DNA of 63,086 bases, filler included, from Dehalococcoidia bacterium (lineage in GTDB: Bacteria > Chloroflexota > Dehalococcoidia > DSTF01 > JACRBR01): assembly GCA_041494685.1 (NCBI GenBank). It is 3 parts of 3 records of this genome, joined end to end, with 100 filler letters (N's around TTAATTAATTAA, not from the genome) between each part and the next. Parts side by side here need not be neighbours in the genome. Positions count along the whole stretch, not along the records: positions 1 to 21,240 come from JBGQBE010000008.1; 2 more parts are not named here. One strand, given 5' to 3'. Below are positions 1-43,699 of the stretch, one piece after another. Positions within the stretch are counted from its first letter, which is position 1; the number at the start of each line of letters is the position of its first letter. A model generated the notes under the pieces. The model had not been told where the DNA came from, searched no databases, and saw only the letters and a list, made by a program, of their open reading frames with translations. The position numbers and the translations under genes are program-made.

Positions 1-238
1 AGGCGTCGGGCTACGCACCCACCTACTCCAACGGCACGTACGACTACAGAGCGGCGACTGCCGTCACCGTGTCGAGCGGCACGACGACGCCCGGCATCAA
101 CTTCGCGCTCGCCCGGGCCGGCAATATCGCTGGCAACGTGACAAACGCACTTGGCACGCCGATCGCCGGCGCGAACGTCTGGGCGAGTGCCTCGGGATGC
201 TGCGGCGGCGGGAGTACCACGACCGCCGCGGACGGCAC
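1..238 (+). repeat. Near-identical copy of 62849-63086 (probable contig overlap)
   Basis: Manual alignment gives 7 mismatches in 238 bp, in the same reading frame. Confidence 0.9.
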
Positions 239-1712
239 GTATCTGATGACCAATCTCGTGCCAGCCTCGTACGTCGTGCAGGCCCAGGCGTCAGGCTACG
301 CATCCACCTACTACAACGGCACGTACGAGTACGGCGCGGCGACGCTCGTGACGGTGACGAGCGGCACGACGACGCCCGGCATCAACTTCGCGCTCGCCCA
401 GGCCGGCAGTATCGCCGGCAACGTGACAGACGCCCTCGGCACGCCGATCGCCGGCGCGAGCGTCGAGGCGAGCGGCGCCGCTTGCTGTGGTTCCGGCTAT
501 GCCACGACCGCTGCCGACGGCACGTACGTCATCACTGACCTTGTGCCGGGCAGCTACCGCGTGTGGGCGTCGGGCTCGACGTGCGGATTCTCCTCGCCGC
601 CCAGCCTGTCGTGCGTCGTGTACCCGCAGCGGTACTACAACGGCACCTACGACTACGGCGCGGCGACGCTCGTGCCGGTTGCGAGCGGCGCCACGACGCC
701 CGGCATCAACTTCGCGCTCGCGGCCGGCGGCGGCATCACCGGCACCGTAACGAACGCCCTCGGCACACCGATCGCCGGAGCGAACGTCTCGGCCTACGCG
801 ACAACGTGTTGTGCCTACGGTGGTCTCGCGACGACCGCTGCCGACGGGACGTACGTCCTCGCCGGGCTCCCTCCGGTCCCGACCATCGTGCAGGCGTCGG
901 TCATCTGCCCTCCGCCAGCACCACCCTCATCGCCACCGGCAGGGCCGTGTACGCCGTATCCGGTGTGGTACTACGACGGCACGTGCGAGTACGCGGCGGC
1001 GACGCCCGTTTCGGTCGCCAGCGGTGGAACAGCGACGAACATCAATATCACGCTACGGCCAGCGAACCCCGACTGCTTCGACCAGGCGGTTCCTGTCGGC
1101 GGCCTCCCATACACGGATGCTCGCAGCACGGCAGGCGCATCGACCGCACCTGGCGAGAACCTCCCATGCGGCAACATGGGGGCTACGGTCTGGTACCAGT
1201 ACACAGCACCTTCTTCGGCAGTGAAATTCCGCACGACGAGCGTCGACACCGTGGGCAGCAACTTCAACACGGTAGTCGCCGTGTACAGTCAGGGTGTATC
1301 GCCGCCCAGCATCCTGACGCTCGTCGGGTGCAACGCCAGCGGTTCAGGATCGCTCGTGAACTTCAGCGCGAGTCCGGACACGCGGTACTACATCCAGATA
1401 GGCGGACAGTCCGGCGCTACGGGCCAGCTGACCGTCCATGTCTCACCCGACACAGACGGGGACGGATACACCGACATCGAGGAGACGCGCCTTGGTGAAG
1501 ACCCGCTCACCTTCTGCCCGATCATGAGGGCAGACGTGACGGGAGATGGCGTCGTGGCGATTGACGATATTGGCAAGGTCGCCATCTACTTCGCCCAGGC
1601 CATTCCGCCCGCCCCTGCGCGATATGACCAGTACTTCGACGGCAAGATTACGATCCCCGACCTGGGGAAACAGGCGTTGGTCTTCGGGCAACATGTGGGT
1701 GCGTGTCCGTAG
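1..1712 (+). CDS. C-terminal part of a large secreted repeat protein: carboxypeptidase-regulatory-like repeats, a beta-rich domain and a dockerin-like tail (5' truncated)
   Basis: Frame is open from the window start. Repeats of GxIxGxVTxALGTPIAGA...TTAADGTY...YYNGTYxY...TPGINFAL. Tail DTDGDGYTD...RADVTGDGVVAIDD...YDQYFDGKITIPD...ACP stop. Confidence 0.85.
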   Translation, partial: ASGYAPTYSNGTYDYRAATAVTVSSGTTTPGINFALARAGNIAGNVTNALGTPIAGANVWASASGCCGGGSTTTAADGTYLMTNLVPASYVVQAQASGYASTYYNGTYEYGAATLVTVTSGTTTPGINFALAQAGSIAGNVTDALGTPIAGASVEASGAACCGSGYATTAADGTYVITDLVPGSYRVWASGSTCGFSSPPSLSCVVYPQRYYNGTYDYGAATLVPVASGATTPGINFALAAGGGITGTVTNALGTPIAGANVSAYATTCCAYGGLATTAADGTYVLAGLPPVPTIVQASVICPPPAPPSSPPAGPCTPYPVWYYDGTCEYAAATPVSVASGGTATNINITLRPANPDCFDQAVPVGGLPYTDARSTAGASTAPGENLPCGNMGATVWYQYTAPSSAVKFRTTSVDTVGSNFNTVVAVYSQGVSPPSILTLVGCNASGSGSLVNFSASPDTRYYIQIGGQSGATGQLTVHVSPDTDGDGYTDIEETRLGEDPLTFCPIMRADVTGDGVVAIDDIGKVAIYFAQAIPPAPARYDQYFDGKITIPDLGKQALVFGQHVGACP

Positions 1713-4885: not shown

Positions 4886-5341
4886 TCAGCCGCCGCTCAT
4901 CTGCGAGATGAGGTCCACCACTTGGCCGTTGGCGAGCACCGTGTCCGGCGGCTGCGCCTCGTCGGACACGGCTACGAGGATGCTCGGTCCCATCGAAGCC
5001 AGGACCGGGTACGCCTCGCCCAGCCGATTCAACAGCGTGCCGACCGTTCCACCCGGCGGGAGCGTCACGGTGACGATCCGGTTGCCCACCAGGCGTTCTA
5101 GCGCGGCCGACAGCCGGACGCGCACCGCGATGGTCCGCGGCGTCAACAGACGCCCCGCAGCAGCGCCGCCGTTGGCGCCGGCATCCGCGGTGAGCGAAGA
5201 CTCGGCATGCGCCGGCCGATGAGGCCGCAGGTACGAGCCGCCCCATACGAACGCGATCGCGCTGGCGAGAGCGACCGGACCGGTCAGGATTAAGAACCTG
5301 CTTCGATCTGCCCGCTGGTTGCCACGGCGTCTCTCGGTCAT
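4886..5341 (-). CDS. MoaD/ThiS ubiquitin-like protein with N-terminal hydrophobic segment
   Basis: Beta-grasp-like pattern VRVRLSAALERLVG...TVGTLL...ILVAV, ending in ISQMSGG. Confidence 0.75.
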   Translation of the reverse strand: MTERRRGNQRADRSRFLILTGPVALASAIAFVWGGSYLRPHRPAHAESSLTADAGANGGAAAGRLLTPRTIAVRVRLSAALERLVGNRIVTVTLPPGGTVGTLLNRLGEAYPVLASMGPSILVAVSDEAQPPDTVLANGQVVDLISQMSGG

Positions 5342-5349
5342 CGCGCGCC

Positions 5350-6438
5350 CTACTTGACTTCGATCAGTCCGACGGCGCCCAACCCGGTGTAAGCGAAGCT
5401 GTGCGTCACGAACGGATACTGGCCGGCCTCCGGGATGGTCAGTTCGAACGTCGCGCCGCCGCCGGGCGGGATGGTCCAGGTCTGCACGCCTCGCAGGACG
5501 TTGGCCGGGTTGCCGTCGGGGTACACCTTGTCGAAGATGGCGCCGATGACGTGGAACGCGGAGAAGAGCGTCGGGCCCGCGTTGACCACGTGCAGGCGGA
5601 TCAATTCACCGGGCGACGCCTGCAGCGGCTGCTGCTGGTACTGGTTCGCCGCGCCGTTAAAGACGACGAAGTCCGGCAAGATCGCCTGGGCGCGCGTGAG
5701 GTCGCCGCCCCAGTTCCCGCTGGCGCCCTTCGACAGGTAGAACTCGCTCTGCACCAGCACGTACTCTCGCGCCGGCGCGAGGGGCTGCGTGGGGTCGACG
5801 ACCACGGCGCCGTACATCCCGTTGATCAGGTGTTGCAGCACCGGGCCGGTGCCGCAGTGGTACATGAAGACGCCCGGGTAGTTGGCCTTCCAGTTGAAGC
5901 TGATCTCCTGGCCCGGGATGATCGTCTTGTAGCTGACGTTCCAGGGCGTCTGCGCGGCGTGGAAGTCGATCGAGTGGCCCATGGTGCCGCCGTTGTGCAA
6001 CGTGAACGCGATCGCATCGCCCTGGCGGACGTGCACCACGTTGCCCGGCAGGACGCCGTCGAAGGTCCAGGCGTCCATCGTCACGCCCGCCGCCACTTCG
6101 TGCGTCAGCTCCTTCGTGTCGATGCGCAGCGTCTTCGACGGGTTGGGGTCGGCCGGCTTCAGCGCCGCGTCGTACACGGCCGCGAGCTTGCCGCTCGCCT
6201 TCGGGCGGTCTGAGCCGGGTGCGACAGTCGGCATGCTGTTGCCGCCGGACGCGGCCGCTGTCGGTGAGCCGGCCGCGCCGGCCTGACCGGCGGAGAACGG
6301 AGGTGCGCCGGGCTTCTCGTACACGCCGCCCGGGTCGCCGCACGCCGCTGCGACCACGCCGGCGGCAGCCAGCCCGCCGGTCAGGCCCAGGAACCTGCGT
6401 CGGTCGAGCGGCTTGGTCAGGCGGTCGATCTCGTTCAT
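5350..6438 (-). CDS. nirK: Copper-containing nitrite reductase, Tat-exported lipoprotein
   Basis: HSIDFH, YHC, QHLINGM, FHVIG and FVTH supply the type 1 and type 2 Cu ligands and catalytic Asp/His; RRRFL Tat motif and AAAC lipobox. Confidence 0.88.
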   Translation of the reverse strand: MNEIDRLTKPLDRRRFLGLTGGLAAAGVVAAACGDPGGVYEKPGAPPFSAGQAGAAGSPTAAASGGNSMPTVAPGSDRPKASGKLAAVYDAALKPADPNPSKTLRIDTKELTHEVAAGVTMDAWTFDGVLPGNVVHVRQGDAIAFTLHNGGTMGHSIDFHAAQTPWNVSYKTIIPGQEISFNWKANYPGVFMYHCGTGPVLQHLINGMYGAVVVDPTQPLAPAREYVLVQSEFYLSKGASGNWGGDLTRAQAILPDFVVFNGAANQYQQQPLQASPGELIRLHVVNAGPTLFSAFHVIGAIFDKVYPDGNPANVLRGVQTWTIPPGGGATFELTIPEAGQYPFVTHSFAYTGLGAVGLIEVK

Positions 6439-6503
6439 GGACTTTTCTCCTTGCTCCCACTCAGTCTCAGAGGCCGGACGGCGCCCTGAGACATACTACG
6501 CTT

Positions 6504-8705
6504 TCACCAGCCGACAGCTGCGCGCGCCGCTGGCGACATCCGCTCCGGCGTCCACGCTGGCTGCTCGACGACGTCCACGTCTACCGTCTCGATGCCATGT
6601 ACGCCGAGGAGCGCGCCCCGCACTTGCTCCTCCACTTCGTCGGCCATCGGGCAGCCTGGCGCCGTGAGCGTCATCCTCACGTGCGCATACGCGTCGCGCA
6701 CGGCCACGCCGTACACCAGGCCGAGGTCGACGATGTTGACCGGAATCTCCGGGTCGTTGCACGTCTTCAACGCCGTCCGCACCGCCTCTTCCGTCACCGT
6801 CGTTTCGATGAGCTTGATATCGATAGGCGCGACAGCTTCACCACGCTCTGGCTGCGGCGTCCTTCCGATCGCCATGTTGAGCGTATCGACGAGCGCGTCG
6901 GGATCGGCGCTCAGGAATGCCGCCGCGCGTTCGAGCGTGATCGTCGGCGCCATGCGCGCGCGCATCTCCGGATCGGCGATCGGGCCGAAGCCGTAGTCCA
7001 GCAGCACCGTCAGCACGATGGGGCTGAGCGCTAACGCCTCGGCGACGGTCATGTCGCGCCGCACGGGCCCGGCCGGCCGCCGCCCGCCCGCACGCCCGGT
7101 CTCCGTGGGATCAGGGCCGCCTTCCGGCGCGCGGGTTCGCTGGTCGAGCGGCGCGGGAGTGGCAGCCCCCGCGGCGCCCTCCGCGGCAGCCGCGAAGCGT
7201 GCGAACATCGACGTTGTCAGCTCGACGAAGAACGTGCCGAGTCCGAAGAACAGCAGCACGCCACCCGCGGTCAGCAGCTTGAAGTCCAGCTTCGATGGCG
7301 CCGGCGTGAAGGCCACCGGAAACACGCGCAACACGCCGGCGGCGGCGACCATCAGGTACGACGCCGGCACGCCGGCCGGCCAGCGCAGCGCGCGACCGGA
7401 GAACACCGGCACTGTGCGGTACGCCATCGCCATGATCATCAGCGTCGCGAAGCCCAGCAAGAATGCGTGGCGGATTGCGCCCGCGGCATAGAACGGCGTG
7501 AAGCCGCCGTCCAGCTCGCGCAGTCGCCAGTAGACGTCCAGCGCCGCACCGATCAACAGCCAGGCGTATGCCGTCTGCACCATCGATCGGTACGCGGGCG
7601 GCGCCTCGACGGGCGGCGCTTCCGACGTGGGGGACTCGAACACGCGCAGCGCGGCGGCCGCCGCGGCCACGCCGACCGCCAGGGTGAACGTGGCGACATA
7701 GTCGACCTGACTCGTCCAGCCGTACCGGCCGAACTCCGGCGCCCACACGGCCGCGACGCGAAGCGGCAGCGCGACGACGATCGCCGCGAACGCCGCGTCT
7801 CTCAGCCACCCGTACGCCGGCCTCAGCGACAGGAAGAACGGGAGCGCCCGGAACGACACGCCGAGCACGAACAGCACCACGAAGCCGTAGACGGCCCCCT
7901 CGAGCAGCGCCGCGTCGCCGGCTACGTTGAGCACCCGCTGGCCGTCCACTGCGGCTCGCAGCGTGAGGTACGCGTTGATACCGGCCAGCGCGGCGAGCCA
8001 CGCCGTCGCCGCCTGGACGAACCGATCGAACGGCTCGCGCTTGTCGCGCGCGCGCCAGAAGATCCCGGCGACGAGCGCCGCGAAGAGCGCGACGCCCGCG
8101 ATCTCGACCAGCGCCGAAGCGCCAAGCAGCCAGCGCAGGAACCCCTGTCCGTGCGGCTGCGCCAGGGCGCGCATCAGCACGCCGGCCAGCATGGTCCAGT
8201 ACGTCGCCAGCACGAGCCGGCGGTCCGGAGGCGCCTGCCCTTTGAAGCGCGGCAGGACGTGCAGCGCGATGCCCATGATGAACAAGACCAGGTAACCGAA
8301 CACCTGGATGTGTCCGTGCGTCTGGACCAGCGCGAGCCACGCCTCGCCGCGCAGGCCGCCCCAGCCGCCTCCCGTCATCGCCGCCGCGATCCCGGACGTG
8401 ACACCGGCACCGAGCGCGAGCACGAGCGACGTCGTCAGGAAGAGCGGGTACGTATGCCCGCCGGCGTCCACCGCTCGGCGCGGCCGCACGCCCGTTCGGA
8501 CGAGCGACGCGGCGTACTCGTTCAGCTCGGCAACGAGCTGCCGCGGGTCGACGTGGTGGACGGCGGCGAAGAATCCGATCGGCTCCGCCGGCCCGTCAGG
8601 ACCGCCGCAGCCGGTGAGCCCGTGCTTGTCAAAGATCTGTTCGGCGCCCGGGCAGGACGCAACCGCTTCGCGGACGGTCGTGCGAGTGGTGATCGGTCCG
8701 GCCAT
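6504..8705 (-). CDS. Fusion protein: DUF1858/ScdA_N-like, NnrS-like membrane domain, DUF1858-like, DUF59/SufT
   Basis: N-terminal TVREAV...GLTGCGG; HGHIQVFG and AIRHAFLLGF in a multi-TM core; MTVAEAL...TITLERAA; DPEIPVNIVDLGLVY...TAPGCP...WTPERMS. Confidence 0.8.
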   Translation of the reverse strand: MAGPITTRTTVREAVASCPGAEQIFDKHGLTGCGGPDGPAEPIGFFAAVHHVDPRQLVAELNEYAASLVRTGVRPRRAVDAGGHTYPLFLTTSLVLALGAGVTSGIAAAMTGGGWGGLRGEAWLALVQTHGHIQVFGYLVLFIMGIALHVLPRFKGQAPPDRRLVLATYWTMLAGVLMRALAQPHGQGFLRWLLGASALVEIAGVALFAALVAGIFWRARDKREPFDRFVQAATAWLAALAGINAYLTLRAAVDGQRVLNVAGDAALLEGAVYGFVVLFVLGVSFRALPFFLSLRPAYGWLRDAAFAAIVVALPLRVAAVWAPEFGRYGWTSQVDYVATFTLAVGVAAAAAALRVFESPTSEAPPVEAPPAYRSMVQTAYAWLLIGAALDVYWRLRELDGGFTPFYAAGAIRHAFLLGFATLMIMAMAYRTVPVFSGRALRWPAGVPASYLMVAAAGVLRVFPVAFTPAPSKLDFKLLTAGGVLLFFGLGTFFVELTTSMFARFAAAAEGAAGAATPAPLDQRTRAPEGGPDPTETGRAGGRRPAGPVRRDMTVAEALALSPIVLTVLLDYGFGPIADPEMRARMAPTITLERAAAFLSADPDALVDTLNMAIGRTPQPERGEAVAPIDIKLIETTVTEEAVRTALKTCNDPEIPVNIVDLGLVYGVAVRDAYAHVRMTLTAPGCPMADEVEEQVRGALLGVHGIETVDVDVVEQPAWTPERMSPAARAAVGW

Positions 8706-8751
8706 GGCAGCGCCTCCTCGTGCACCCTATTCGACCTGCGACCCGCTCCGC

Positions 8752-8767
8752 TGTAACTTAGGTCTCA
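8752..8767. promoter_or_regulatory. Crp/Fnr-type binding site between divergent genes
   Basis: TGTAACTTAGGTCTCA resembles TGTGA-N6-TCACA and matches the reverse complement of the 9454-9469 site. Confidence 0.65.
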
Positions 8768-9450
8768 TGGAGGCAGACCGCGTGCCTGACCCGCTGCTCG
8801 CCGTCCCCTACTTCTCGGCACTCACCTCCGAGCAGCGGGCCCGCGTGCTGGGCGCGGCGCGGCGGCTGCGGGTGGCCGCCGGCCAGACGCTGTTTGTCGA
8901 GGGCGAACCGTGCGCCGGGCTGTACGTGGTGGTGAGCGGGCTGGTGAAGCTGTTCAAGACGTCCCTCGACGGCAAGGAGCAGGTGCTGCGCCACATGTCG
9001 GCTGGCGACTCGTTCAACGAGGTGCCGGTGTTCGACGGCGGCGTGAACCCGGTGAGCGCGGCGGCCGTCGACGGAAGCGAACTCGTCGTGCTGTCGCGCG
9101 ACGCCATGCTCGGCGTGTTGCGCGAGTATCCGGCCGTCGCGGAGGTGGTGGTGCAGGTGTTCGCGTCCCGGCTGCGGCACCTGGTGGCACTCGTCGAGGA
9201 CCTCTCGTTCCGGCAGGTGACGGCGCGCGTCGCGCGCATCGTCCTGCAGTCGGTGGCGCCGCACGAGGGCGTAGGCGCCGGCGTCGGCGGGCGCGCGCAC
9301 GTCACGCAACGCGAGATCGCCGAGATGGCGGGTACCAGCCGCGAGGTCGTCGCCCGCGCGCTCAAGGCGCTCGAAGAGGCCGGCGCAATCGACGTGCGCC
9401 GCGGCGACATTCACGTCGTCGACGATGCGCGCCTCACCGCGCTTTCCTGA
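8767..9450 (+). CDS. Crp/Fnr family transcriptional regulator
   Basis: LFVEGEP...GLVKLFKTSLDGKEQ effector barrel; TQREIAEMAGTSREVVAR HTH; no FNR-type Cys cluster. ATG at 8767. Confidence 0.93.
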   Translation: MEADRVPDPLLAVPYFSALTSEQRARVLGAARRLRVAAGQTLFVEGEPCAGLYVVVSGLVKLFKTSLDGKEQVLRHMSAGDSFNEVPVFDGGVNPVSAAAVDGSELVVLSRDAMLGVLREYPAVAEVVVQVFASRLRHLVALVEDLSFRQVTARVARIVLQSVAPHEGVGAGVGGRAHVTQREIAEMAGTSREVVARALKALEEAGAIDVRRGDIHVVDDARLTALS

Positions 9451-12629: not shown

Positions 12630-12682
12630 GTCGTGCCGTTTCGTACATCGCCGTCCCGTTTGGCGATCAATCGCGCGAGCCG

Positions 12683-12878
12683 CTACACCCCGATGGCGGC
12701 GGCCACCTTCCCCCAGCTCGCGTCGGCCTCACCCTCCAGCCGCCTGAGGTAGATCGACGTGACCTGTAGCGAGGAGTGATCGAGAAGCGGCTGACGTTCT
12801 CGATGCTCTCACCCGCGTCTCGCTGGAGCTTCGCAGCCGAGTGGCGGAAGATATGGATGCCGGCGAGGGGCAGCCCGG
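12683..12878 (-). pseudogene. C-terminal remnant of a tyrosine integrase, paralogous to 15554-16480
   Basis: Aligns by eye with about 15554-15750 (HIFRHSAAK...SLQVTSIYLRRLEGEAD), with a 1-bp deletion near 12780. Confidence 0.88.
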
Positions 12879-13084
12879 AAGTTGGGCGATACCAGTTGCG
12901 TCGATAGTGACCTTGTCAACGCGCTTAGGGCATGCAACGAGAATTCACTCAAGAGAGCGGCAAGACTCTTGGTCGCGTCGATCGCGAACGCGCGTGAGCT
13001 GCCACGCGGTCTCTCGGACTCGGCACGCACGACGATCCTAACCCGACAGGTCGTGCGTCAGTATGCGAATGCACTAGGCGCCTA

Positions 13085-13113: not shown

Positions 13114-13181
13114 AGCGTTGCCCTTCGCAACTGCGTATGGGTCTCTGCTAGATCGTCAGGATGACCAGAAAGGAGCGGTAC

Positions 13182-15317
13182 ATGGCGTCCCCACGTATCT
13201 CAACGCTCGTGCGAAGGCCGGGACTGGCGGTGGCGTTGCCTCTGCTGATCGTCGCGATCGCGCTCGCGGCGGTCGGGCGACTTCAAACGGCCCTCGCGAC
13301 GACCGGCGGCCCCACGCTCCAGATGTCCGGCCCTTCCGTCGTCGATGCCAATGCGTCCTTCGACATCTCGTTCGCGACGGCTGGCTCGACCACCAACGCT
13401 TACGCCGGCTACCAAGTGGCCTTCCAGTATGACACCTCGAAGGTGCAACTTAACGTCAACGGCCCGGCCGATGACTCACGTCCAGGTCTGTGGCTCAACC
13501 GCTCCTGCACGTCGAGCTGGGATAGCCCGGCCGACCCGAACCAGGCGACGAAGACCGCCACGTTGAGCTGCCTCGCGCCCCCGGCGCAGGCGACGCTCAG
13601 CGTAGGCGCGCTCGCCCACGCTCACTTCACCGCCGTCGGCGCGGGCCTGGCGACGTTCCACGTCCTGACCAGTGGCACCTCCACGCTCGACGCGAACGGT
13701 GCGCCGCAGACGAACCCCACGCCGGGCGACGTCACCGTCGACGTCGCGCCGACGGACCTCTCGATGTCGGTCACGCCAAGTACTGTCGCGGCGACCGGCG
13801 ACACGCAGTACTTCTACCTCCAGGTAACCAACCTCTCGCCGACCAGACAAGGCACGGGCGTCGTCGTGAGCGACACGGTCCCTGCCGCCTTCCCGCTGGC
13901 ACAGCACCCGTTCTTCCTCTCCGGGGCCTCGGGCTGCGCGGCGCAGGGCCAGGTGATCACCTGCAACGTCGGCACGATCGCGGGCGGCGGCACGTATACG
14001 GTCGGCGTCATCACCACTGCGCAGTGGAGTGGGATTCCGTCCGCGCAGGACTGCGCGTCCGTCACACTCAACGAACACGACCTGCATCCAGAGAACAACA
14101 CGTCCTGCGCAACCGTACTGAACAAAGACGGTCCATCGATCAACGTGAGCACCAGTCGGCTGGGACTCAACAGCTACCGACTGACGTTCGCGACGGCGGG
14201 TACGAGCCCGAACGCCTACAACATCTACAAGGTGACCGTGGTCTACGACTCCAGCCGTGTCACCATCAACAACATCAGTGCGCCGCCATTCGCCCAGGCT
14301 CTCTGGGGAAACGCCTTATGCGATACGCCCGAGATGACGAGTACCGTCGGAGGAACGCTCGCGCCGCCGATGAAGGCCTTCGCGTTCGACTGCGCGTCGA
14401 ATGGCGCGCCGGCCACGACAAACGTGGGGACGATCGGGACCGTCGACGTCCAGATCGCCGACGGCCTGCCGGCCGCATTCCACATGTTGAGCTATGGCCC
14501 ACCCGACAATGGAGCCGGGGTTGGCAGTTATCCGGTCGGATACGGTACATACACGATGTTCGCGGGCGGACCCCAGGCGAATCCTCTCACGTGCGGCGGG
14601 TCCTGCGGAGTGCTGCAGGGCTACGCGACGCAGCCGTGGGACGCCCTCGTGAACTACCCGTCGCCGAACCTGTCGCTCATCGTCTATGGTAACCACTCGC
14701 CCATCGTTGTCGGAGCCGTGGAGAATTTCTCGCTTACGGTCCGCAATCCCTCGACCACGGTTGACGCAACGGGGGTGAATCTCACGGCGACGCTCTCGTC
14801 CGCCTACGATGGACCGCATAGCCGGATAGCCGGAGCAAACGCACCGCAGTGTTCGCTTTCGGGACAGCTTGTGTCCTGCAACAACTTCACGATCGCTCCG
14901 GGAGCGGCGTTCTCGATCGTCGTTCAAGCCCTTGCGGCGCAGTTGACGCCCGCAGCCGACATGCCGGTCTCGCTCACTTGGAATTACTACCAGCCCCCGA
15001 ACACGACGAATACACTCAGCGCACTCGGCCGGGTATCGGTAGAGGTCGATTCATCGGGAGATGGCTACGCGGACTCCGAGAAGATCGCGATGGGTAAGAA
15101 CCCGGCCACCTACTGTGCGATCAGACGCGCCGACGTGAACTACGATGGCGTCGTCGACATCAATGATCTCAACGCCGTAAGCGCGTACTACCAGCAGAAC
15201 ATTCCGCCGGCTCCGCCTCGCTACGACCAGAACGGAGACGGGCGCATCAACCTAACAGATATCGCCATCATGTCGTCGTCGAACGTCTTAAGTCACAGCG
15301 TGACCGAATGTCCCTAA
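13182..15317 (+). CDS. Secreted protein: two (cohesin-like + DUF11-like) units and a dockerin-like tail
   Basis: Signal peptide; YAGYQVAFQYDTSKV...GALAHAHF; DLSMS...GVVVSDTVP...ENNTS; tail RADVNYDGVVDINDL...DQNGDGRINLTDI...CP. RBS AGGAG precedes ATG 13182. Confidence 0.8.
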   Translation: MASPRISTLVRRPGLAVALPLLIVAIALAAVGRLQTALATTGGPTLQMSGPSVVDANASFDISFATAGSTTNAYAGYQVAFQYDTSKVQLNVNGPADDSRPGLWLNRSCTSSWDSPADPNQATKTATLSCLAPPAQATLSVGALAHAHFTAVGAGLATFHVLTSGTSTLDANGAPQTNPTPGDVTVDVAPTDLSMSVTPSTVAATGDTQYFYLQVTNLSPTRQGTGVVVSDTVPAAFPLAQHPFFLSGASGCAAQGQVITCNVGTIAGGGTYTVGVITTAQWSGIPSAQDCASVTLNEHDLHPENNTSCATVLNKDGPSINVSTSRLGLNSYRLTFATAGTSPNAYNIYKVTVVYDSSRVTINNISAPPFAQALWGNALCDTPEMTSTVGGTLAPPMKAFAFDCASNGAPATTNVGTIGTVDVQIADGLPAAFHMLSYGPPDNGAGVGSYPVGYGTYTMFAGGPQANPLTCGGSCGVLQGYATQPWDALVNYPSPNLSLIVYGNHSPIVVGAVENFSLTVRNPSTTVDATGVNLTATLSSAYDGPHSRIAGANAPQCSLSGQLVSCNNFTIAPGAAFSIVVQALAAQLTPAADMPVSLTWNYYQPPNTTNTLSALGRVSVEVDSSGDGYADSEKIAMGKNPATYCAIRRADVNYDGVVDINDLNAVSAYYQQNIPPAPPRYDQNGDGRINLTDIAIMSSSNVLSHSVTECP

Positions 15318-15553
15318 TTCCATAGACAGTTCGGAACGGGTGGGCGAGAAGCGGCCCGTCCACCCGCTCCGGCCAGACGCGAGCCGCAGGCGGTGGTCCA
15401 TAAACGAGGAGGAATCGCGGTGCTGGCACTTTTGACTGAGGCGTTCCTAGAACCGCTACCGGGCGGGTCGTGCACGTGCGAGCAATGCCTTGGAACAGCG
15501 CCAGTTGTGGCCGGGAAGACAAGATGTGTGCAGAGTGGCTCCCCGCGCCGCGG

Positions 15554-16480
15554 CTACACGCCGATCGCCGCGGCCACCTTCCCCCAGCTCCCGTCGGCCT
15601 CGCCCTCCAGCCTCCGGAGGTAGATCGACGTGACCTGTAGCGACGAATGGCCGGGGAAGCGGCTGACGCTCTCGATGCTCTCCCCGGCGTCTCGCCGGAG
15701 CTTGGCAGCCGAGTGGCGGAAGATGTGCACGCCAGCGAGCGGCAGGTTCCCCGCCTTCAGGTAGCGGCGCAGGTTCCCGTAGAACGTCCCCGACGTGACG
15801 CCCCTGTCGCCCGCGCTGGACGGCCGCAGCGAAGCCTCCGGGGGCATGGCCGCGATGTCCCGCCCGAAGGCCGCCAGGGCCGCCGTGAGCGCCACGTACG
15901 CGGGCTGTGGCAGCTCGCGCTTCCCCTGCTTGTTCCCCTTGCCGCGGTAGCGGTACCAGACGTGGTCATCCTCCGTGGTGAGGTCGCCTGCCGTCATGTT
16001 CAGCACTTCGGTGCGGCGCCGCCCGGTGAGCGTCAGCGTCAGGATGATCGCGCGGTCCCGCAGCCCGACCGGCGTCTCGGGGATCACGGCGAGCAGCTTG
16101 CGGATGTCGTCGGCGGTGAGGCCGCGCGGCGGCGCCACCTGGACACGCGGGCGTTCGAGCGCGTCGCAGGGGTTGGACGAGACGACGTCCATGCGGATCA
16201 GGAAGCGGTAGAAGCTGCTGAGGCAGGCAAGCCGGGCGCCGATCGTGACCGACGACGGCTGCTTACCGGAGAGCCCGACGCCGTACCCCCAGGCGAAGAC
16301 CTCGGGGCTGGTAACCCGGTCGGGCGGCTTGCCGACGGTGGCGAAGAAGTGCTGCAGCATGCGGCTGTAGCCTTCGACGGTGCGACGGCTACCGGAGCGG
16401 CGCTCCTTCTCCGCGAGGAACGCGTAGAGGCTGCGTTCCCAGCCCTCGGCCGTGTTGTCGAACGTGGCGATCGTCTGCAT
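15554..16480 (-). CDS. Tyrosine recombinase/integrase
   Basis: RDRAII...TGRRRTE, HIFRHS and GHSS...TSIY catalytic set; N-terminal SAM-like domain; RBS GGAGG. Confidence 0.95.
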   Translation of the reverse strand: MQTIATFDNTAEGWERSLYAFLAEKERRSGSRRTVEGYSRMLQHFFATVGKPPDRVTSPEVFAWGYGVGLSGKQPSSVTIGARLACLSSFYRFLIRMDVVSSNPCDALERPRVQVAPPRGLTADDIRKLLAVIPETPVGLRDRAIILTLTLTGRRRTEVLNMTAGDLTTEDDHVWYRYRGKGNKQGKRELPQPAYVALTAALAAFGRDIAAMPPEASLRPSSAGDRGVTSGTFYGNLRRYLKAGNLPLAGVHIFRHSAAKLRRDAGESIESVSRFPGHSSLQVTSIYLRRLEGEADGSWGKVAAAIGV

Positions 16481-21240: not shown

Positions 21241-21340
21241 NNNNNNNNNNNNNNNNNNNNNNNNNNNNNNNNNNNNNNNNNNNNTTAATTAATTAANNNN
21301 NNNNNNNNNNNNNNNNNNNNNNNNNNNNNNNNNNNNNNNN
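21241..21340. other. Artificial contig linker
   Basis: N run, TTAATTAATTAA, N run; the 12-mer gives stops in all frames. Confidence 0.98.
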
Positions 21341-21535
21341 CTCGCGCTCCGCGGCCTGCGCGGCGGCGCGCGCCTGCTCCGCGGTCACCGTCATGTACGC
21401 GTTGAGCCGCGGGTTGAGGCGCTCGACGCGCGCCAGCACGGCGTCCGTCAGCTCGACCGGGCTGATCTCCTTCGCGGCGATGCGGCGCGCGACATCTTCC
21501 AGCGGCTGCAGGCACACGCCCTCTTCGATCGCCAT
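21341..21535 (-). CDS. Amidase signature family protein, N-terminus (truncated by gap)
   Basis: IAAKEISPVELTDAVLARVERLNPRLNAY. Confidence 0.85.
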
Positions 21536-21610
21536 CTCGTCACCTCCGTCGTCCTGGTCGCGCGCAGAGAGCGCGCCGCCGATGCGATCCTACGCGCCGG
21601 GGCGCAACGG

Positions 21611-22402
21611 TCAACCGGCAGCGCTGTCTCGTGCCGCCTCGACCGCCCGCACGAGCGCGGGCAGCGCGACGCCTGCCGGCTGCCGCAGCGCCGCCACGAC
21701 GTGCGGCGAGAACGGCGTCGGCTCCGGGTTCACCTCGATCAGCGTGCCGCCGCGTTCGAGCACCATCTCGGGGAACCACGCAGCCGGCGTGACGGTCGCC
21801 GACGTGCCGGCGATCAGCATGCAGTCGGCGCGCTCGACCTCGTCGTAGCAGGAGCGCAGGGCCGCTTCCGGGATGGTCTCGCCGAACATGACGGTGTCGC
21901 TCTTCAGCACGCCGCTGCACCGGGCGCAGCGCGGCGGCAGCTCGCTGAGGTCCGCTTCGGCGAAGGGCCAGCGTCCGCCGCAGTCGATGCAGCGGACCTT
22001 CGTGCGGTTGCCGTGGATCTCCGTCACGGCGCTGCTGCCAGCGACGAAGTGCAGGTTGTCGATGTTCTGCGTGATCGTGTGGCACAGCACGCCGACCGCC
22101 TCCAGCCGCGCCAGCGCGTGGTGCGCCGGATTTGGCCGCGCGGCGGCCAGCGCGCGCGAGAACTCGTCGTCGGCGGCGCGGCGCGCCAGCATCTCCTGCC
22201 AGGCGGCGCCGGGGTCGGCGAGGAAGCGGCGGTAGCCGTCCATCGGCGGCTCGCCGCGCTTCGTCCACAGCCCGCCCTCGCCGCGGAACGGCGGGATGCC
22301 GCTCTCGACCGAGATGCCCGCGCCGACGAGCGCGATCGCGTAGCGCGCGGAGGCCAGCGCCTGCGCGGCGCGTGTGAGATCTGCGGTGGCGTCGTCGGTC
22401 AT
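21611..22402 (-). CDS. cobB: Sir2-family NAD-dependent deacylase
   Basis: GAGISVESGIP, TQNIDNLH, HG, two CxxC, GTS. Confidence 0.92.
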   Translation of the reverse strand: MTDDATADLTRAAQALASARYAIALVGAGISVESGIPPFRGEGGLWTKRGEPPMDGYRRFLADPGAAWQEMLARRAADDEFSRALAAARPNPAHHALARLEAVGVLCHTITQNIDNLHFVAGSSAVTEIHGNRTKVRCIDCGGRWPFAEADLSELPPRCARCSGVLKSDTVMFGETIPEAALRSCYDEVERADCMLIAGTSATVTPAAWFPEMVLERGGTLIEVNPEPTPFSPHVVAALRQPAGVALPALVRAVEAARDSAAG

Positions 22403-22430
22403 CGTCGTCTCGCTGCCTGCGCGGCCACGG

Positions 22431-23309
22431 TCAGCGGCGGGGGCCGGCGCCCTCGCGCGGGGCGCGGATCAGCCCTTCCTGCGCCACCGAGGCGACGCGC
22501 ACGCCCGCCTGGTCGTACATCTGCGCCAGGATCAGCGCCCGCGCCTCGTGGGCCACCGGGCTCTCGCTGGTGTAGAGCAGCCAGCCGTCGAAGCGGGGCG
22601 TGCGGTGGAACCAGATGGCGTGGTCCAGGCTGGCCGAGTTCATGCCGCCGCGCGGGATGCCGTGCGGCTGACGCGCCGTCGCGATCAGGCCGCTGTCGCT
22701 GGCGTACGCCATCATCGCGGCGTGGATGGCGGGGTCGTCGGGCAGGGTGCCGCGGACGCGCATCCAGACGCGGCGGCGCGGCGTGTCGCCGGGCGGCGGG
22801 CCGTCGCGGTCCACCGCCAGCACCTCGATCGGATTCTGGCGGCGCCAGCGCTCCATCATCGCGCTGTGCTCCGTGTTGTCGATGCGCATGAACTCCCACT
22901 CGGGCAGCCCGTCCGGCCCCGGGAGGTCCGGCGCCGGCTCCTGGTGCGAGATGCCCTCCTGCGGCTTCACGAAGCTGCACGAGAGGTTGAAGATCGCCTC
23001 GCCCGACTGGTACGCGACGACGTCGCGCGTCGTGAAGGATCGGCCGTCGCGGATTCGGTAGACGACGTAGCGGATCGGCACGGCGTACTTGCCGGGCCGC
23101 AGGAAGTAGGCGTGCAGCGAGTGCAGCGCGCCCTCGTCCTCGACCGTGCGGTAGGCCGCCATCACCGACTGCGCTGCGACGAGGCCGCCAAACAGCCGGA
23201 ACTCGCCCGGCCCCGGGTCGCCGAGGAAGAGGTCGCGGTCCATCCGCTCCAGGTCGAGCTGCTTGAGCAGGCGCTCGAGCGGTACCGGGTTCTCGTCGTA
23301 CGTCGTCAT
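22431..23309 (-). CDS. tesB: Acyl-CoA thioesterase II
   Basis: LFGGLVAAQ, HSLHAYFLRPG, RDGRSF, YASD, SLDHAIWFH, QEGLIR. Confidence 0.92.
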   Translation of the reverse strand: MTTYDENPVPLERLLKQLDLERMDRDLFLGDPGPGEFRLFGGLVAAQSVMAAYRTVEDEGALHSLHAYFLRPGKYAVPIRYVVYRIRDGRSFTTRDVVAYQSGEAIFNLSCSFVKPQEGISHQEPAPDLPGPDGLPEWEFMRIDNTEHSAMMERWRRQNPIEVLAVDRDGPPPGDTPRRRVWMRVRGTLPDDPAIHAAMMAYASDSGLIATARQPHGIPRGGMNSASLDHAIWFHRTPRFDGWLLYTSESPVAHEARALILAQMYDQAGVRVASVAQEGLIRAPREGAGPRR

Positions 23310-23366
23310 CAGATCGAGGGTAGCGAACGGCGGGGGGAGGCGCGAATGCGAGGATGGACGCAGACG

Positions 23367-23392
23367 GGCCCGCGACGGATCCGTCGCGGGCC
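23367..23392. terminator. Perfect 26-bp palindrome downstream of ppdK
   Basis: GGCCCGCGACGGA-TCCGTCGCGGGCC; no clear U-tract. Confidence 0.55.
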
Positions 23393-23431
23393 TGCTAACT
23401 AGCTGAGCTGAAGTGCGGACCAGCTGACCCG

Positions 23432-26386
<2,955 letters not shown>

Positions 26387-26430
26387 GACTTCTCCCATCT
26401 CTTCCGCGCCATCCCGCCCGCGGCGGGGGC

Positions 26431-27405: not shown

Positions 27406-27617
27406 CGAGCGGCGGCCTCCGTAGTGACCACGACATGATGAATGCCCAATCTGCGAAGCGCTGGATTATACCACCGCACCGGTTAGGCGAAGCCCCATCG
27501 TGGGTGGCGATTCCCACCCCGGCGGGCTGCGCAAACCGCAACCGCGGCCTGTTGCTACGGCCGCCCGCCCCGGGCGATGATGCGTGGCACGCCAGAGTCG
27601 AGAGAGAGGGTGCCGAC

Positions 27618-28715: not shown

Positions 28716-28726
28716 TACGCTCCGTC

Positions 28727-29707: not shown

Positions 29708-29787
29708 CGCCACATTGTGGGCCACGGCGGCCCGCGGCGGCCAGCGCGGCGTATCGTGCCGCGCCACGTGCGGGGTACAATCGCGCC

Positions 29788-32873: not shown

Positions 32874-32882
32874 GGCCGGGCC

Positions 32883-40056: not shown

Positions 40057-40109
40057 ACTCGCCGCGAACGGCATCACATGACGCGCACGCTATGAGACAT
40101 CGTGTGCGC

Positions 40110-41686
40110 GTTGTTGCCGAAGGGTCCTACGTCGCGGCAGTTCTTGGTGCGCGCAAGGTCGCTGAACGTCACCAAGTTTGAAGCCCAGCTAAACAGCGAG
40201 GCGCTGCCGCGGGATCGGGCTTCAGTGCGCTGCTCCGGGCTGCTCGCTTGATGTTCATCGCCGCCGCCGTGAGCCACAGCTGGATCTGGACGCGGCGTCT
40301 CCCCTTGAAGCGCATCCGTCTCAGGTCGTGCAGTTCTTTTGGCGAGGCCGAAGACCCCTCTATATAGGTATAGGTCTTCCGCTCGACGAGCCGCCGTATT
40401 CCGAACGGGCTCGCGACCCGTTCCTGCGCAGCGTCGACCAGGTCGAGGGCCCACGAGCGGTGCAGTGAGCGCGCGATCCCCGAAAGAGCGCGCTGCGAGC
40501 GAAACGGACAGGCAACGCAGCTGCCCCTGGGCGCTTGATAGCGCACGCGCTGCGTCCCCTTCATGTTGGAGTACCGCCGCAGCCGCTCGCCGGCGGGACA
40601 GAGAAAGGCATCCTCTGCAGGCGGCCAGGTGAAGTGCTCGCGTCCCCAGATGCCCGTGTGCTGGTTGCCGAAGCGGGTGGTGGGAATGAAGGCCGGGATG
40701 CCGGCGTGCTCTAGGTAGAGGTAGTTGAGCGTGGTTCCATACTTTGGCGTCCGCGACGGCAGCGGGAATGGCGTGCTTGCTGAGCCGGCGGTGCTGCCAG
40801 AGCACGTCCGGGAGGAGATGCTTATCCGCTTCGGCGCCGGTGGTGGCCACGGCGGCGGTGATCACCTGGCCGCGTCGCCCGGCGACGGCCATGTGCGCCT
40901 TGTAGGCGAGATGGCGGCCGAAGTCAGGTCGGTTGACCAGCGTCGCCTCGGGATCGGTCCGACTCTGCAGTTCCTGATTGGGCCGGAGCAGCGGGCCTCC
41001 TGCAGACGGAGGACTGCCCGCCGGCGGTTCCGCATCAGGCGGCGGGGCTTCCGCGGCGACGTCGTCCTGGTCGAGGCGACGCAGGTACTCCGTCACGGAC
41101 AAGGGCGGGCGCGCCACGTCAGCTCGCTGGGTCAGGGAATCCACCGAAGCACTGGCCTGCATGAGGGTGCTGTCGACGTAGACCGGTCCCTCTTCCATGA
41201 GGCCTGCCTGCCGGCAGAGCTCGATCGACTGACGGAAGAATTCCTCAAAGACCAAGCTGCCAAAGCGCGCACGCGCCTTCGAGAGCACGCTGCGATCCGG
41301 CGTCGGCAGATCGATGTCGTAGCCCAGGAACCAGCGATAGCCCAGGTGCAGACGCACCTCCTCGGCCAGGCGCCGTTCGGACGTGATGCCGTAGAGGTAA
41401 CCCAGCAGCAGCATCTTGAAGATGACGACTGGATCGACGGACGGCTGGCCCGTGTGGCTGTAGAAGGGGCGGCAGAGTGGCCGGACGAAGGAGAAGTCGA
41501 CGGCTTCGGCGATGCGCCGTAGCAAATGGTCCTGGGGTACGAGCCGGTCGAGTGACAACTGGTAGTAGAGCTTGGTCTCGAAGTCCCGCTGGCCCATCAT
41601 CGGCGGCCTCCTCATCTCTGGGAGGCCACGCGCCCGTGTCGATCATATCACTGACGCGATCCCAACACGATCAGTTCGGCAACAAC
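40110..41686 (-). mobile_element. IS1182-family element with frameshifted transposase
   Basis: LVPQDHLLR...GQPSVDP...YLYGITSER, VDST, CPAG, RFKGRRRV. 12-bp inverted repeats GTTGTTGCCGAA (40110-40121 and 41675-41686). Frameshifts near 40743 and 40365. Confidence 0.88.
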
Positions 41687-42046: not shown

Positions 42047-43699
42047 ATGAACCGCCGTATCGTGGTCCTAGGAGCGCTAACTCTCGCGAGCGGATGCTTG
42101 TTGATTGCGACGGCGACAAGGTCGTCGACCGTGGCGACAGGAGCAACGGTTGGCACGGGCCCCGCGATCTCAATCGGGCCCCCGACACTTATCAGCGGAA
42201 AGCTCGTTGTTCCAGTGAACGCGTCCGGAGCAGGGTTTGACCCGTACGCTTCTTGGAACATCCATTTGCGTTGGACACCTGGCGTCTTCGCGTTTTCGAG
42301 TGCAAGCGCGGCCGGCGGTGTCATCGATCCGGCCGATGGCAATCTGTGTCCTGCACCGAATACCACCAAGTATGACAGTGATGGCGGCGGCGTCCTCTAT
42401 AGCTGCTTGATCGTTGGAGGTTCGACCACGGCAACAGGACTGATGGCGACGTTCAAGTTGACGCCGGCGGCCTCGGGGTGTGCGACCCTGCATCTCTTTA
42501 CCTTCGGTCCACCGGATGGGGGCACCACTGCAAGTGGGACGGCGACTCTGAACCCGAACACAGGCATCGCGCAATTCAACGCATATGGAGCGGATGTCAA
42601 CGTCGGGGTGAGCGGGAACCCTTGTACGCCGCCGGGAACGGTGACGCCTACATTGACGCCTACGGCTACCGCGACATCGACCGCGACGTCAACTCCAACG
42701 GCCATCGCTACGCCGCTTACCGGCTTCCCTGATCTGACGGTGTCAGGCCTGAGCGTACCTCAGGGTACTGACAGTGGTGGAATGGCATCATACAGCGTCG
42801 TGGTGTCAAACATTGGTGACGCCTTGGCGGTGAACGTTCGTCTCGAGGTCAGCTTGCCGCTTGGTGCCGTGCCATCGAAAACCTCCGGGTGTTCCGTCTA
42901 CGCGTCGAGCCACTGGTTCTGTACTGTTCCGGATCTCGGTGCGCTGCACACCCCAGGCGATATGGCCGGCCTCGTCATCGACGTTCACGAGCGTGTCTCA
43001 ACCGCCGGCATCGTGGCGATGGCGCAAGTGCACGTGAGCGCGTCGAACGAGCCCCCGGTGAATGTCGGTAACAACACCGCGGAGATTGTCACAAACGTGC
43101 GCGGCTGTCCGGACCTGAATGGCGACAATATCGTAGATCTATCTGACCTCACGCTTGGAATGGCGTCGTACCTGCTGCATGTGGGCGATCCGGGATACAA
43201 TCCCCTCGCGGACCAGAACGGGGACGGCACGATCACGCTCCAAGACCTGACTGTCATGAGTGGCAGGTATCTGGACACATGCAAGGGCCTGGATAGTGAT
43301 CATGACGGACTGTCCGACTACGATGAGGTACACGCATACGGCACGGATCCCTACCGCTCCGACACCGACGGTGACGGGCTTCCCGACGGTGTGGAAGTCT
43401 GGACCTACAGCTCTAATCCGCTTATCGCTGATACCGATGGCGACGGATACTCCGACAGTGAGGAGGCGGCCCTTGGCAAAGATCCGCGCGTGTTCTGCTG
43501 GATCATGAGGACCGATGTCAGTCACGACGGGATCGTAGATCTGGCTGACCTCACGATCGCCGCCAGTTCGTATCTGAAGTCCACTGGCGAGATCGGATTC
43601 CAGCCGCGGGCGGACAGCGACGCGAACGGCATTGTCGACCTGTCCGACCTCACCATTATCGCGCTGTATTACCTCCAGTCCGTTCAGGGCTGTACATAA
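42047..43699 (+). CDS. Secreted protein: cohesin-like, PT linker, DUF11-like, dockerin-like, DxDGDG Ca-binding repeats, second dockerin-like
   Basis: Signal peptide after RBS GGAGG; YASWNIHLRWTP...GLMATF; CPDLNGDNIVDLSDL...DQNGDGTITLQDL; RTDVSHDGIVDLADL...DANGIVDLSDL...CT. Confidence 0.82.
   Translation: MNRRIVVLGALTLASGCLLIATATRSSTVATGATVGTGPAISIGPPTLISGKLVVPVNASGAGFDPYASWNIHLRWTPGVFAFSSASAAGGVIDPADGNLCPAPNTTKYDSDGGGVLYSCLIVGGSTTATGLMATFKLTPAASGCATLHLFTFGPPDGGTTASGTATLNPNTGIAQFNAYGADVNVGVSGNPCTPPGTVTPTLTPTATATSTATSTPTAIATPLTGFPDLTVSGLSVPQGTDSGGMASYSVVVSNIGDALAVNVRLEVSLPLGAVPSKTSGCSVYASSHWFCTVPDLGALHTPGDMAGLVIDVHERVSTAGIVAMAQVHVSASNEPPVNVGNNTAEIVTNVRGCPDLNGDNIVDLSDLTLGMASYLLHVGDPGYNPLADQNGDGTITLQDLTVMSGRYLDTCKGLDSDHDGLSDYDEVHAYGTDPYRSDTDGDGLPDGVEVWTYSSNPLIADTDGDGYSDSEEAALGKDPRVFCWIMRTDVSHDGIVDLADLTIAASSYLKSTGEIGFQPRADSDANGIVDLSDLTIIALYYLQSVQGCT

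Follow-up and report, generated by a model that had tools for sequence, protein, structure and literature searches.

The tail-bearing proteins and their domains

The DNA analysed here is a 63,086-base stretch (hereafter the window) from the genome of an uncultured Dehalococcoidia-class bacterium (Chloroflexota). Its main subjects are three proteins, P_A, P_B and P_C, which end in a common tail and are assessed below as parts of a candidate cohesin-dockerin docking system. The source assembly comprises 3.29 Mb in 87 contigs, has a G+C content of 68% and is rated 97.6% complete. The window joins three contig pieces: positions 1-21240 come from the beginning of contig C8, positions 21341-36393 correspond to C9:1-15053 and positions 36494-63086 are the whole of C46, with runs of N at 21241-21340 and 36394-36493 separating them. 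Distances between features on different pieces are therefore meaningless. P_A and P_B both lie on C8, 11 kb apart; P_C is on another contig and is a neighbour of neither. The three genes and their domains are located as follows (aa, amino acids; ORF, open reading frame; AF2, AlphaFold2).

3..1712, + strand: P_A, 5'-open at the contig start, with three CarboxypepD_reg repeats, one further domain and the tail at 1449-1712
13161..15317, + strand: P_B, ORF of 718 aa
13302..13745 (approximate bounds), + strand: P_B cohesin-like domain 1, GPPD motif absent, assigned by profile link and by alignment to domain 2
13755..14117, + strand: P_B DUF11 domain 1 (aa 199-319), the best PF01345 stretch, covering profile positions 1-114 of 114
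14121..14624, + strand: P_B cohesin-like domain 2, carrying YGPPDNG, assigned by AF2 model and profile match
14673..15026 (bounds inferred from self-alignment), + strand: P_B second DUF11-like domain; Pfam reports two DUF11 stretches and places the best only
15048..15317, + strand: P_B tail, with a TSP3-like calcium repeat at 15048-15113 and two dockerin calcium loops with predicted helices
41951..43699, + strand: P_C, 582 aa, the likelier start being the ATG at 42047
42146..42622, + strand: P_C cohesin-fold domain, with FGPPDGG and four conserved Cys, assigned by AF2 model and fold searches
43091..43289, + strand: P_C internal dockerin module, Cys-bracketed, with the best Dockerin_1 stretch at aa 388-436
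43430..43699, + strand: P_C terminal tail, a TSP3 repeat plus a Cys-bracketed dockerin, ending Cys-Thr-stop

All three ORFs run in frame into the common tail, as the original prediction had it. The N-terminus of P_A is missing, the window starting where the contig starts, and a secretion signal is beyond reach for this protein. P_B begins with a hydrophobic, signal-like segment, followed by cohesin-like domain 1, DUF11, cohesin-like domain 2, a DUF11-like domain, a TSP3-like repeat, a Cys-bracketed dockerin and the stop codon. Position 13182, from which the gene had first been read, is an in-frame ATG 7 codons downstream of the ORF start at 13161. Self-alignment of P_B reveals an internal duplication (E 1e-16). 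P_C is composed of a signal-like segment, a cohesin, a Thr/Pro linker, a DUF11-like domain, an internal Cys-bracketed dockerin, TSP3 repeats and a terminal Cys-bracketed dockerin. The cohesin-like domains had each been described as followed by a DUF11-type domain and as sharing the motif (F/Y)GPPD(N/G)G. The first arrangement is found twice in P_B (DUF11 54.2 bits in two stretches) and once in P_C, where the DUF11 score of 18.6 bits lies below the cut-off; the motif occurs in P_B domain 2 and in P_C and is absent from P_B domain 1.

The common tail as a dockerin-type module

The final 87-89 residues of P_A, P_B and P_C are homologous: the P_B tail shares 47% identity with that of P_A over 89 aa (E 4e-30) and 40% with that of P_C over 78 aa (E 2e-22). 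They form a module of ~88 aa, made of a thrombospondin-type-3 (TSP3)-like calcium (Ca) repeat and a two-loop dockerin. The alignment returned the tail motif as it had been written before: DxxGDGYxDxE...G.xP..(F/Y)C, the loops DVxxDGxV..xD and D.xxxGxI..xD, then C(P/T)-stop. The two tandem 12-residue, EF-hand-like Ca loops (D.[DN].[DN]G....D), each with a helix predicted after it, are DVNYDGVVDIND and DQNGDGRINLTD in P_B and have equivalents in P_A and P_C. In the P_B tail, the first Cys is encoded at 15114-15116 and the last at 15309-15311, followed by Pro and the stop codon.

The proposed dockerin-type nature of the tail, with its double Ca loop, is borne out by Pfam and by the nearest solved sequences. 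The Pfam model Dockerin_1 (PF00404, gathering cut-off 22.9 bits) matches P_B above its cut-off, with 32.7 bits over aa 657-704, and gives 32.1 bits in two stretches on whole P_C, the best stretch being the internal module. A profile of the 11 modules of the genome was compared with all PDB sequences; six dockerin-bearing chains ranked first (2y3n_B, E 1.5e-11; 4fl4_A; 2ccl_B; 1ohz_B; two CelD entries), with calmodulins after them. These dockerin matches span profile positions 13-68, and both Cys fall outside the region common with the solved dockerins. The model of the bacterial TSP3 repeat (TSP3_bac, PF18884, cut-off 25 bits) reaches 60.6 bits over three stretches of P_C and 16.7 bits, below its cut-off, on P_A; P_B has no TSP3_bac match, though its DSSGDGYADSE aligns with the TSP3 segments of P_A and P_C. 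In long forms of the tail, the first loop is preceded by a TSP3 repeat and by a 'C.I.RA' turn. The module is free-standing, 65-90 aa long, and placed after long Thr/Pro linkers. Judged by its sequence class, the common tail is a C-terminal, type-I-like dockerin, usually preceded by one TSP3 Ca repeat.

A caveat attached to the original prediction was that the tail might be a variant of the Chloroflexi flexitail domain (NCBIfam NF041520). This did not hold at the family's own curated cut-off of 40 bits, against which the scores are 15.1-25.8 bits. P_A reaches 15.1 bits (17.4 in the genome scan) over model positions 1-72, P_B and P_C give no match at E<=1, and the best score in the genome, 25.8 bits, falls at about aa 78-142 of a 346-aa ORF and hence is not C-terminal. 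In 301 sampled genomes of the phylum the flexitail model gave no match at E<=1e-5, a result of little weight since control genomes also gave none. A search of the open-access literature returned no paper on the flexitail domain, the term turning up unrelated antibody engineering only. Because the flexitail scores are far below the cut-off and Dockerin_1 is above its own, the tail was classed as a variant dockerin rather than a flexitail.

Cohesin-like domains of P_B and P_C

The domains flagged as cohesin-like are predicted to fold as cohesins, in a nine-stranded jelly-roll beta-sandwich that superposes on the solved members, which agrees with the claim made for them. The AF2 model of the P_C domain, built from a 57-sequence alignment, has a predicted local distance difference test score (pLDDT) of 92.8 and a predicted template modelling score (pTM) of 0.82. 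Foldseek against the PDB returned 68 matches to it at E<=1e-3; every row listed was a cohesin or cohesin-like protein, with a best E of 6.2e-6 and a target-normalised TM score up to 0.76. In VIA-align, which is independent of Foldseek and covered 48,161 chains, cohesins fill the top 20 rows at Z 13.7-9.1 (root-mean-square deviation 2.7 over 135 residues, e.g. 6kgc_A) and the first other fold appears at Z 8.9. P_B domain 2 gave a model with a mean pLDDT of 79.5, for which all Foldseek PDB matches among the rows listed were cohesins (best E 2.5e-5, TM no higher than 0.62).

Profile searches complement these models. A family profile built without the P_B rows matched P_B domain 1 at E 1.7e-9 and domain 2 at E 8.5e-8 among 34,461 six-frame ORFs, and the same profile detected the Pfam-positive cohesin of contig C17 (E 7.9e-8). 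Scores of the Pfam model Cohesin (PF00963, gathering cut-off 24.1 bits) on paralogues are 14.7-15.8 bits. The profile of the cohesin alignment (A3) was marginal against PDB sequences, 5 of 7 matches being cohesin or scaffoldin and the best (E 7.4e-4) involving in part the Thr/Pro linker; the cohesin claim therefore leans on the fold searches. When the P_C domain served as query in an exhaustive phmmer search, 161 of 1.84 billion representatives matched at E<=1e-3.

The GPPD-type motif is a feature of this family, with the consensus LHL.T.G.PD.GD in which H, D and G are near-invariant. The subfamily also has four near-invariant Cys, each conserved in 55-57 of the 57 aligned rows (for the fourth, 55 of the 55 rows without a gap), a pattern that suggests two internal disulfides and that is, to our knowledge, unusual for cohesins of anaerobes. 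Known cohesins bind a dockerin on the 8-3-6-5 sheet face. Complex prediction for the P_C cohesin (A3 residues 10-172) with the P_B tail, run without controls, scored 0.16 against a mark of 0.32 and speaks neither for nor against binding.

Dockerin and cohesin genes elsewhere in the genome

The tail profile, whose use for counting had been recommended, detects 11 dockerin-like modules on 10 proteins of the genome. Besides P_A, P_B and P_C, these are three glucose/sorbosone-dehydrogenase (GSDH) proteins with PA14, two of them also with PKD, an M23-peptidase-like protein (below cut-off), a 699-aa protein without Pfam match, a 328-aa protein and a 349-aa protein with a weak cohesin match. A cellulosome was considered and rejected: the cargo consists of GSDH, PA14, PKD, M23-like, CarboxypepD_reg and DUF11 domains, and none of the 10 proteins has a glycoside hydrolase or CBM3 match in Pfam at the thresholds used.

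Cohesin domains are carried by P_B, P_C, a 397-aa protein on contig C38, two ORFs of 315 and 235 aa found by profile, and one protein each on C17 and C28. P_B, P_C and the 349-aa protein of C38 have both module types. The C17 cohesin (G000 C17:1-3000, G000 being this genome) is encoded by an ORF of 221 aa from stop to stop, or 217 aa from a TTG start, and scores 28.6 bits for Pfam Cohesin; it starts with a signal-like segment, and RRVRAR comes after its C-terminal hydrophobic helix. In the C28 protein (G000 C28:31000-34000; 375 aa, Cohesin 20.1 bits), a Thr/Pro linker is present, and LPHAG near the end leads into a hydrophobic helix with a basic tail. LPNTG with a helix and RRRR closes the ORF immediately upstream of the C17 cohesin, and three sortase genes lie together at C41:22634-24643. 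Cohesins with anchor-type ends are thus present alongside dockerin-bearing proteins, and to judge from the sequences the gene set has the layout of an anchoring-cohesin plus dockerin-cargo system. By analogy, P_B (Coh-DUF11-Coh-DUF11-Doc) and P_C (Coh-DUF11-Doc-TSP3-Doc) would occupy the position of adaptor scaffoldins.

A separate observation concerns G000 C38:20000-30000, where ORF 3073-4113 has an EF-hand/dockerin-like fragment and the best, sub-threshold, flexitail score of the genome. Adjacent to it are ORFs 5175-6368, with a C-terminal cohesin-like domain, and 6936-7985, with a cohesin-like domain plus tail.

Distribution among relatives

We assessed the distribution of both modules in this genome and 40 relatives. 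The tail profile matched 33 of the 41 genomes at E<=1e-3, with up to 42 matches in one genome. Within the same family 23 of 24 genomes matched, and within the four other families of the order 0/5, 4/5, 1/2 and 4/4. Pfam Cohesin matched 36 of 41 genomes, 34 of them above the cut-off, and 0/5 in the tail-less family. Among the 40 relatives, 32 have tail and cohesin, three cohesin only, none the tail only and five neither; when G021, which is unpublished, is left out, the counts become 32/40 for tails, 35/40 for cohesin and 31 for both. Across the class, 27 of 201 genomes matched the tail profile at E<=1e-6. Among the matches listed, those outside the order cover the dockerin core only (at most positions 7-72), whereas many within the order cover positions 3-73.

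The relatives combine the modules in further ways, including Coh-Coh-Doc (G002:C69, 714-aa ORF) and Coh-Doc-Doc (G004:C97, 594 aa; G010:C29, 571 aa), gene clusters of Coh-Doc type ORFs, and multi-cohesin ORFs of 1284-4574 aa. Scaffoldin-like ORFs with at least four Pfam Cohesin matches each were seen at G001:C26 (4574 aa), G038:C148 (2025 aa), G030:C1:668416-672834 (1610 aa) and G037:C1:930489-934037 (1284 aa).

Protein searches extended this picture. A set of 153 proteins was formed by 150 relatives of the P_C cohesin and three matches of the P_B search; the tail is also present on 38 of them, including P_B itself and its homologue P0002, and is C-terminal in 25 of these 38. Among the 38, a short signal-Coh-Doc form of about 290 aa is frequent (e.g. 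P0027, P0133 and P0141). A search with the P_A tail returned 37 proteins, with cargo comprising S8, M23 and M36 peptidases, alpha/beta hydrolase, metallophosphoesterase, NHL, Kelch, PQQ, beta-helix and DUF11 domains. A precomputed PF00404 match is present on 13 of these 37, and the flexitail name, from any source, on none. Word-based protein search found almost nothing past P_B itself (three matches for whole P_B, one for its tail), and a locus search with a single short tail gave three loci.

A conserved pair of cysteines brackets the module

In the genome under study, 11 of 11 modules, 10 of them C-terminal, carry one Cys just ahead of the first loop and another behind the second helix. We sampled 51 further modules from 49 loci in 23 related genomes, taking the best-scoring and hand-picked weaker matches per family, so that the sample is not random; the residue windows used to score a Cys as present are approximate. 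Both Cys are present in 46 of the 51 modules, four have the first only and one the last only, and none lacks both. With 11/11 and 46/51 modules carrying it, the bracket is, on sequence conservation, not a matter of chance. In compact modules (CPDLNGD, CLGDVNG) the first Cys lies at -1 or -2 relative to the first loop.

These positions recall the intramolecular clasp of dockerins. According to Slutzki et al. (2013, PMC3821032), the C-terminal end of known dockerins is contacted by residues at positions -1 to -3 relative to the first loop, by which the Ca-bound fold is stabilised and cohesin affinity raised. The clasps described there are non-covalent, formed by aromatic stacking or by hydrophobic or electrostatic contacts, and the words 'cysteine' and 'disulfide' have 0 occurrences in PMC3821032. 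The accessible part of a 2025 review (PMC12484212) mentions disulfides for engineered systems only. The two Cys seen here sit at the two contacting ends, and they probably staple the N- and C-terminal ends of the dockerin by a disulfide; unlike the clasps described in PMC3821032, this form would be covalent. The genome has a heme-copper oxidase subunit I gene (544 bits), which together with the four near-invariant Cys of the cohesins makes an oxidising exterior plausible.

A docking system and its alternatives

We consider it probable that P_A, P_B and P_C belong to a non-cellulosomal cohesin-dockerin docking system of this Dehalococcoidia-class bacterium. In such a system, the tail would consist of two EF-hand-like Ca loops and their helices with the ends stapled by a disulfide, and the secreted tail would plug, in a Ca-dependent manner, into the organism's own cohesin modules. 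Of these cohesins, some would be fixed to the cell, one through its C-terminal membrane helix and one through an LPxxG-type sortase signal. Others are on P_B (two) and P_C (one), whose own dockerin ends would make them adaptor scaffoldins extending a surface layer. Varied cargo would then be displayed at the surface through dockerin-cohesin docking.

Several points weigh against this interpretation. Pfam Cohesin gives no match at E<=1 on P_B and P_C, so that the cohesin assignment rests on the fold and the profile link. P_A has no Dockerin_1 match at E<=1 in Pfam despite the high identity of its tail to that of P_B, and the terminal tail of P_C, taken alone, reaches just 15.2 bits. Binding of the tail by a cohesin is proposed from sequence class and predicted fold, as are the matching of individual tails to individual cohesins and the location at the surface. 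The co-distribution of tail and cohesin is weak evidence, since the five relatives with neither module form one family and so come close to one event in evolution, and related genomes are not independent of each other. Copy numbers of the tail and of the cohesin subfamily do not track each other, G013 having 34 tails and one subfamily cohesin. With regard to the clasp, five of the 51 sampled modules keep one Cys of the pair, and long tails place the first Cys about 5 residues ahead of the first loop Asp, beyond the clasp positions described. VKOR was not found in the genome, and the sole Thioredoxin_4/DsbA-like match is marginal (23.5 bits) on an ORF without a signal-like N-terminus, a search that is uninformative either way for the clasp.

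An unlikely alternative is that the tail is a dockerin-fold, Ca-binding C-terminal domain for lineage-specific surface retention or sorting, flexitail-like and without cohesin binding; its target would be a cell-envelope polymer, an S-layer component or a dedicated processing system reading the terminal Cys-Pro. Like known sorting tags, the module is found in dozens of copies per genome on unrelated cargo. It is described as strictly C-terminal, and 40 of the 51 sampled modules have both Cys and a stop within 4 residues after the last. The weak similarity of the P_A tail to the flexitail model fits as well, as does the lack of scaling between tail and cohesin-subfamily numbers. However, that similarity is far under the cut-off, and the sequence class is that of cohesin-binding dockerins. 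The tail ends (...C(P/T/A)-stop) have no hydrophobic helix, and none of these sequences shows the motif-helix-basic-tail signal typical of sortase or exosortase substrates. Modules also occur internally, at 43091-43289 in P_C and as the first module of L012, and Pfam Cohesin is present in 32 of the 32 tail-bearing relatives.

In a stronger version of the original prediction, proteins with both modules would bind their own kind head to tail and polymerise into a surface lattice, with the DUF11 domains as spacers. We regard this as quite unlikely. Proteins with both module types do exist here and make up the 38 of 153 mentioned above, with the short signal-Coh-Doc form common among them. Their self-affinity is nevertheless hypothetical, and the separately anchored cohesins of the genome would suffice as receptors. 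Characterised scaffoldins, moreover, normally have a dockerin directed at a cohesin type other than their own, and are thereby kept from self-polymerisation. Highly improbable, finally, is a tail serving as a partnerless intramolecular folding or stability cap, locked by Ca and disulfide, next to cohesin-fold domains that are generic Ig-like adhesins: the Ca loops and Cys pair are indeed conserved and other beta-sandwich adhesin domains do resemble the P_C model at Z 7-9 in VIA-align, but cohesins stand clearly above them, tail and cohesin are found together both in genomes and in single proteins, and interaction modules, unlike folding caps, are usually laid out in this way, as free-standing units after long Thr/Pro linkers.

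Mobile DNA and other neighbouring genes

Recombination-associated sequences are located next to P_B and P_C.

12679..12912, - strand: frameshifted 3' fragment of a paralogous recombinase gene, preceding P_B (blastn 88% over 196 nt; tblastn to recombinase aa 235-308)
15554..16480, - strand: tyrosine recombinase gene, directly downstream of P_B (Pfam Phage_integrase 60 bits)
40074..41615, - strand: DUF772 transposase-like ORF, upstream of P_C (PF05598 75.8 bits, N-terminal domain only recognised)

P_B is bracketed by a direct repeat of ~195 nt with 88% identity (12679-12873 and 15550-15745; repeat families D1 and D2). Three further copies of the recombinase, with 90-94% nucleotide identity, are at C38:30350-31315, C25:641-1986 and C26:9033-9990; at least four copies are thus present, two of them frameshifted and one ~2.4 kb from the cohesin/dockerin gene cluster of C38. 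The G+C content around P_B is 0.61-0.69 against a genome mean of 0.68, which is too weak for an island call, and no tRNA gene was found in the window. From this arrangement, P_B may be a movable cassette at a recombination-prone spot. The ORF at 40074-41615 (513 aa) has a C-terminal half that resembles low-complexity, out-of-frame sequence, and it may be a decayed insertion sequence.

Delivery by mobile DNA, another element of the original prediction, is supported by adjacency only: a recombinase and a fragment flank P_B and a transposase-like ORF precedes P_C. The system as a whole, in contrast, looks like an inherited lineage trait, since 23 of the 24 genomes in the same family have its modules.

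Elsewhere in the window, positions 5350-9450 cluster a multicopper-oxidase-like protein, a 732-aa NnrS/FeS-assembly/DUF1858 fusion and a Crp-type regulator, a combination that hints at nitrogen-oxide or copper-related stress handling.

Implications and comparison with known systems

The docking system could be part of something larger, and this extension is put forward tentatively, being possible but rather doubtful. The whole order would run a cellulosome-scale, non-cellulolytic display of its exoproteome, in which stapled dockerins dock on anchored cohesins, Coh-DUF11-Doc adaptors such as P_B and P_C lengthen the array and in part self-assemble as a surface layer, the Cys staple is an adaptation to an oxidising exterior, and recombinase-flanked cassettes shuffle adaptors between strains. 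If this were true, each cell would display dozens of different secreted enzymes (proteases, dehydrogenases, lyase-like and repeat proteins). A cohesin subfamily missed by Pfam would also mean that such systems are under-counted in metagenomes, and designer enzyme scaffolds in which stability matters would profit from a disulfide-stapled dockerin.

Anaerobes that degrade cellulose are the best-known users of cohesin-dockerin assembly. The tail resembles the type I dockerins of such systems (PF00404; 2y3n_B, 4fl4_A, 1ohz_B) in its duplicated Ca loop and helix, its length (about 60-70 aa), its C-terminal position on many secreted proteins and its Thr/Pro linkers; the Pfam match of P_B is above cut-off, and these dockerins are the best PDB sequence matches. 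It differs in having cargo other than glycoside hydrolases, in its host, an oxidase-bearing Chloroflexota lineage and not an anaerobic Firmicute, and in the conserved Cys pair that brackets the module, with the TSP3 repeat and the 'C.I.RA' turn added in long forms. With the NF041520 flexitail, a putative Chloroflexi surface protein tail, it shares a C-terminal position on Chloroflexota surface-type proteins and the weak similarity noted above; the two were compared through the family profile alone, and the scores set them apart.

Cohesin-dockerin pairs known outside the cellulosome include those of Clostridium perfringens glycosidase/toxin complexes, and a cohesin of this kind is known from Archaeoglobus fulgidus, and Peer et al. 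are said to have noted scattered non-cellulosomal modules in a 2009 survey. The present modules resemble these pairs (2vo8, 2w1n and 2jh2 of C. perfringens; 2xdh of A. fulgidus) in being used outside cellulose degradation, and the cohesins of these pairs are among the best structural matches to the P_C model (Z 13.1, 12.8 and 12.2). Unlike them, the modules described here show an order-wide expansion, with as many as 42 dockerins in a genome, anchored cohesins and multi-cohesin ORFs, a scale closer to that of the cellulosome. P_B and P_C, with cohesins and a dockerin end, are also comparable to adaptor and anchoring scaffoldins such as ScaA and ScaB of Acetivibrio cellulolyticus and ScaE of Ruminococcus flavefaciens, a likeness that draws in part on PDB titles. 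ScaE is sortase-anchored, as the C28 cohesin would be, with its sortase-type signal and sortase genes in the same genome. In contrast to those scaffoldins, the cohesins here alternate with DUF11, and no carbohydrate-binding module (CBM) or glycoside hydrolase partners were seen.

In the parts of the open-access literature that were accessible, no description of this system or of a natural Cys clasp was found. Relative to the known systems, the new elements would be the conserved Cys bracket as a probable covalent clasp, the TSP3-dockerin fusion, the Cys-containing cohesin subfamily that Pfam misses and the scale in an uncultured Chloroflexota order. To the cohesin-dockerin repertoire they would add a natural covalent version of the dockerin clasp and a lineage-wide, high-copy system of soil-type Chloroflexota that combines non-cellulolytic cargo with adaptors and anchored cohesins.

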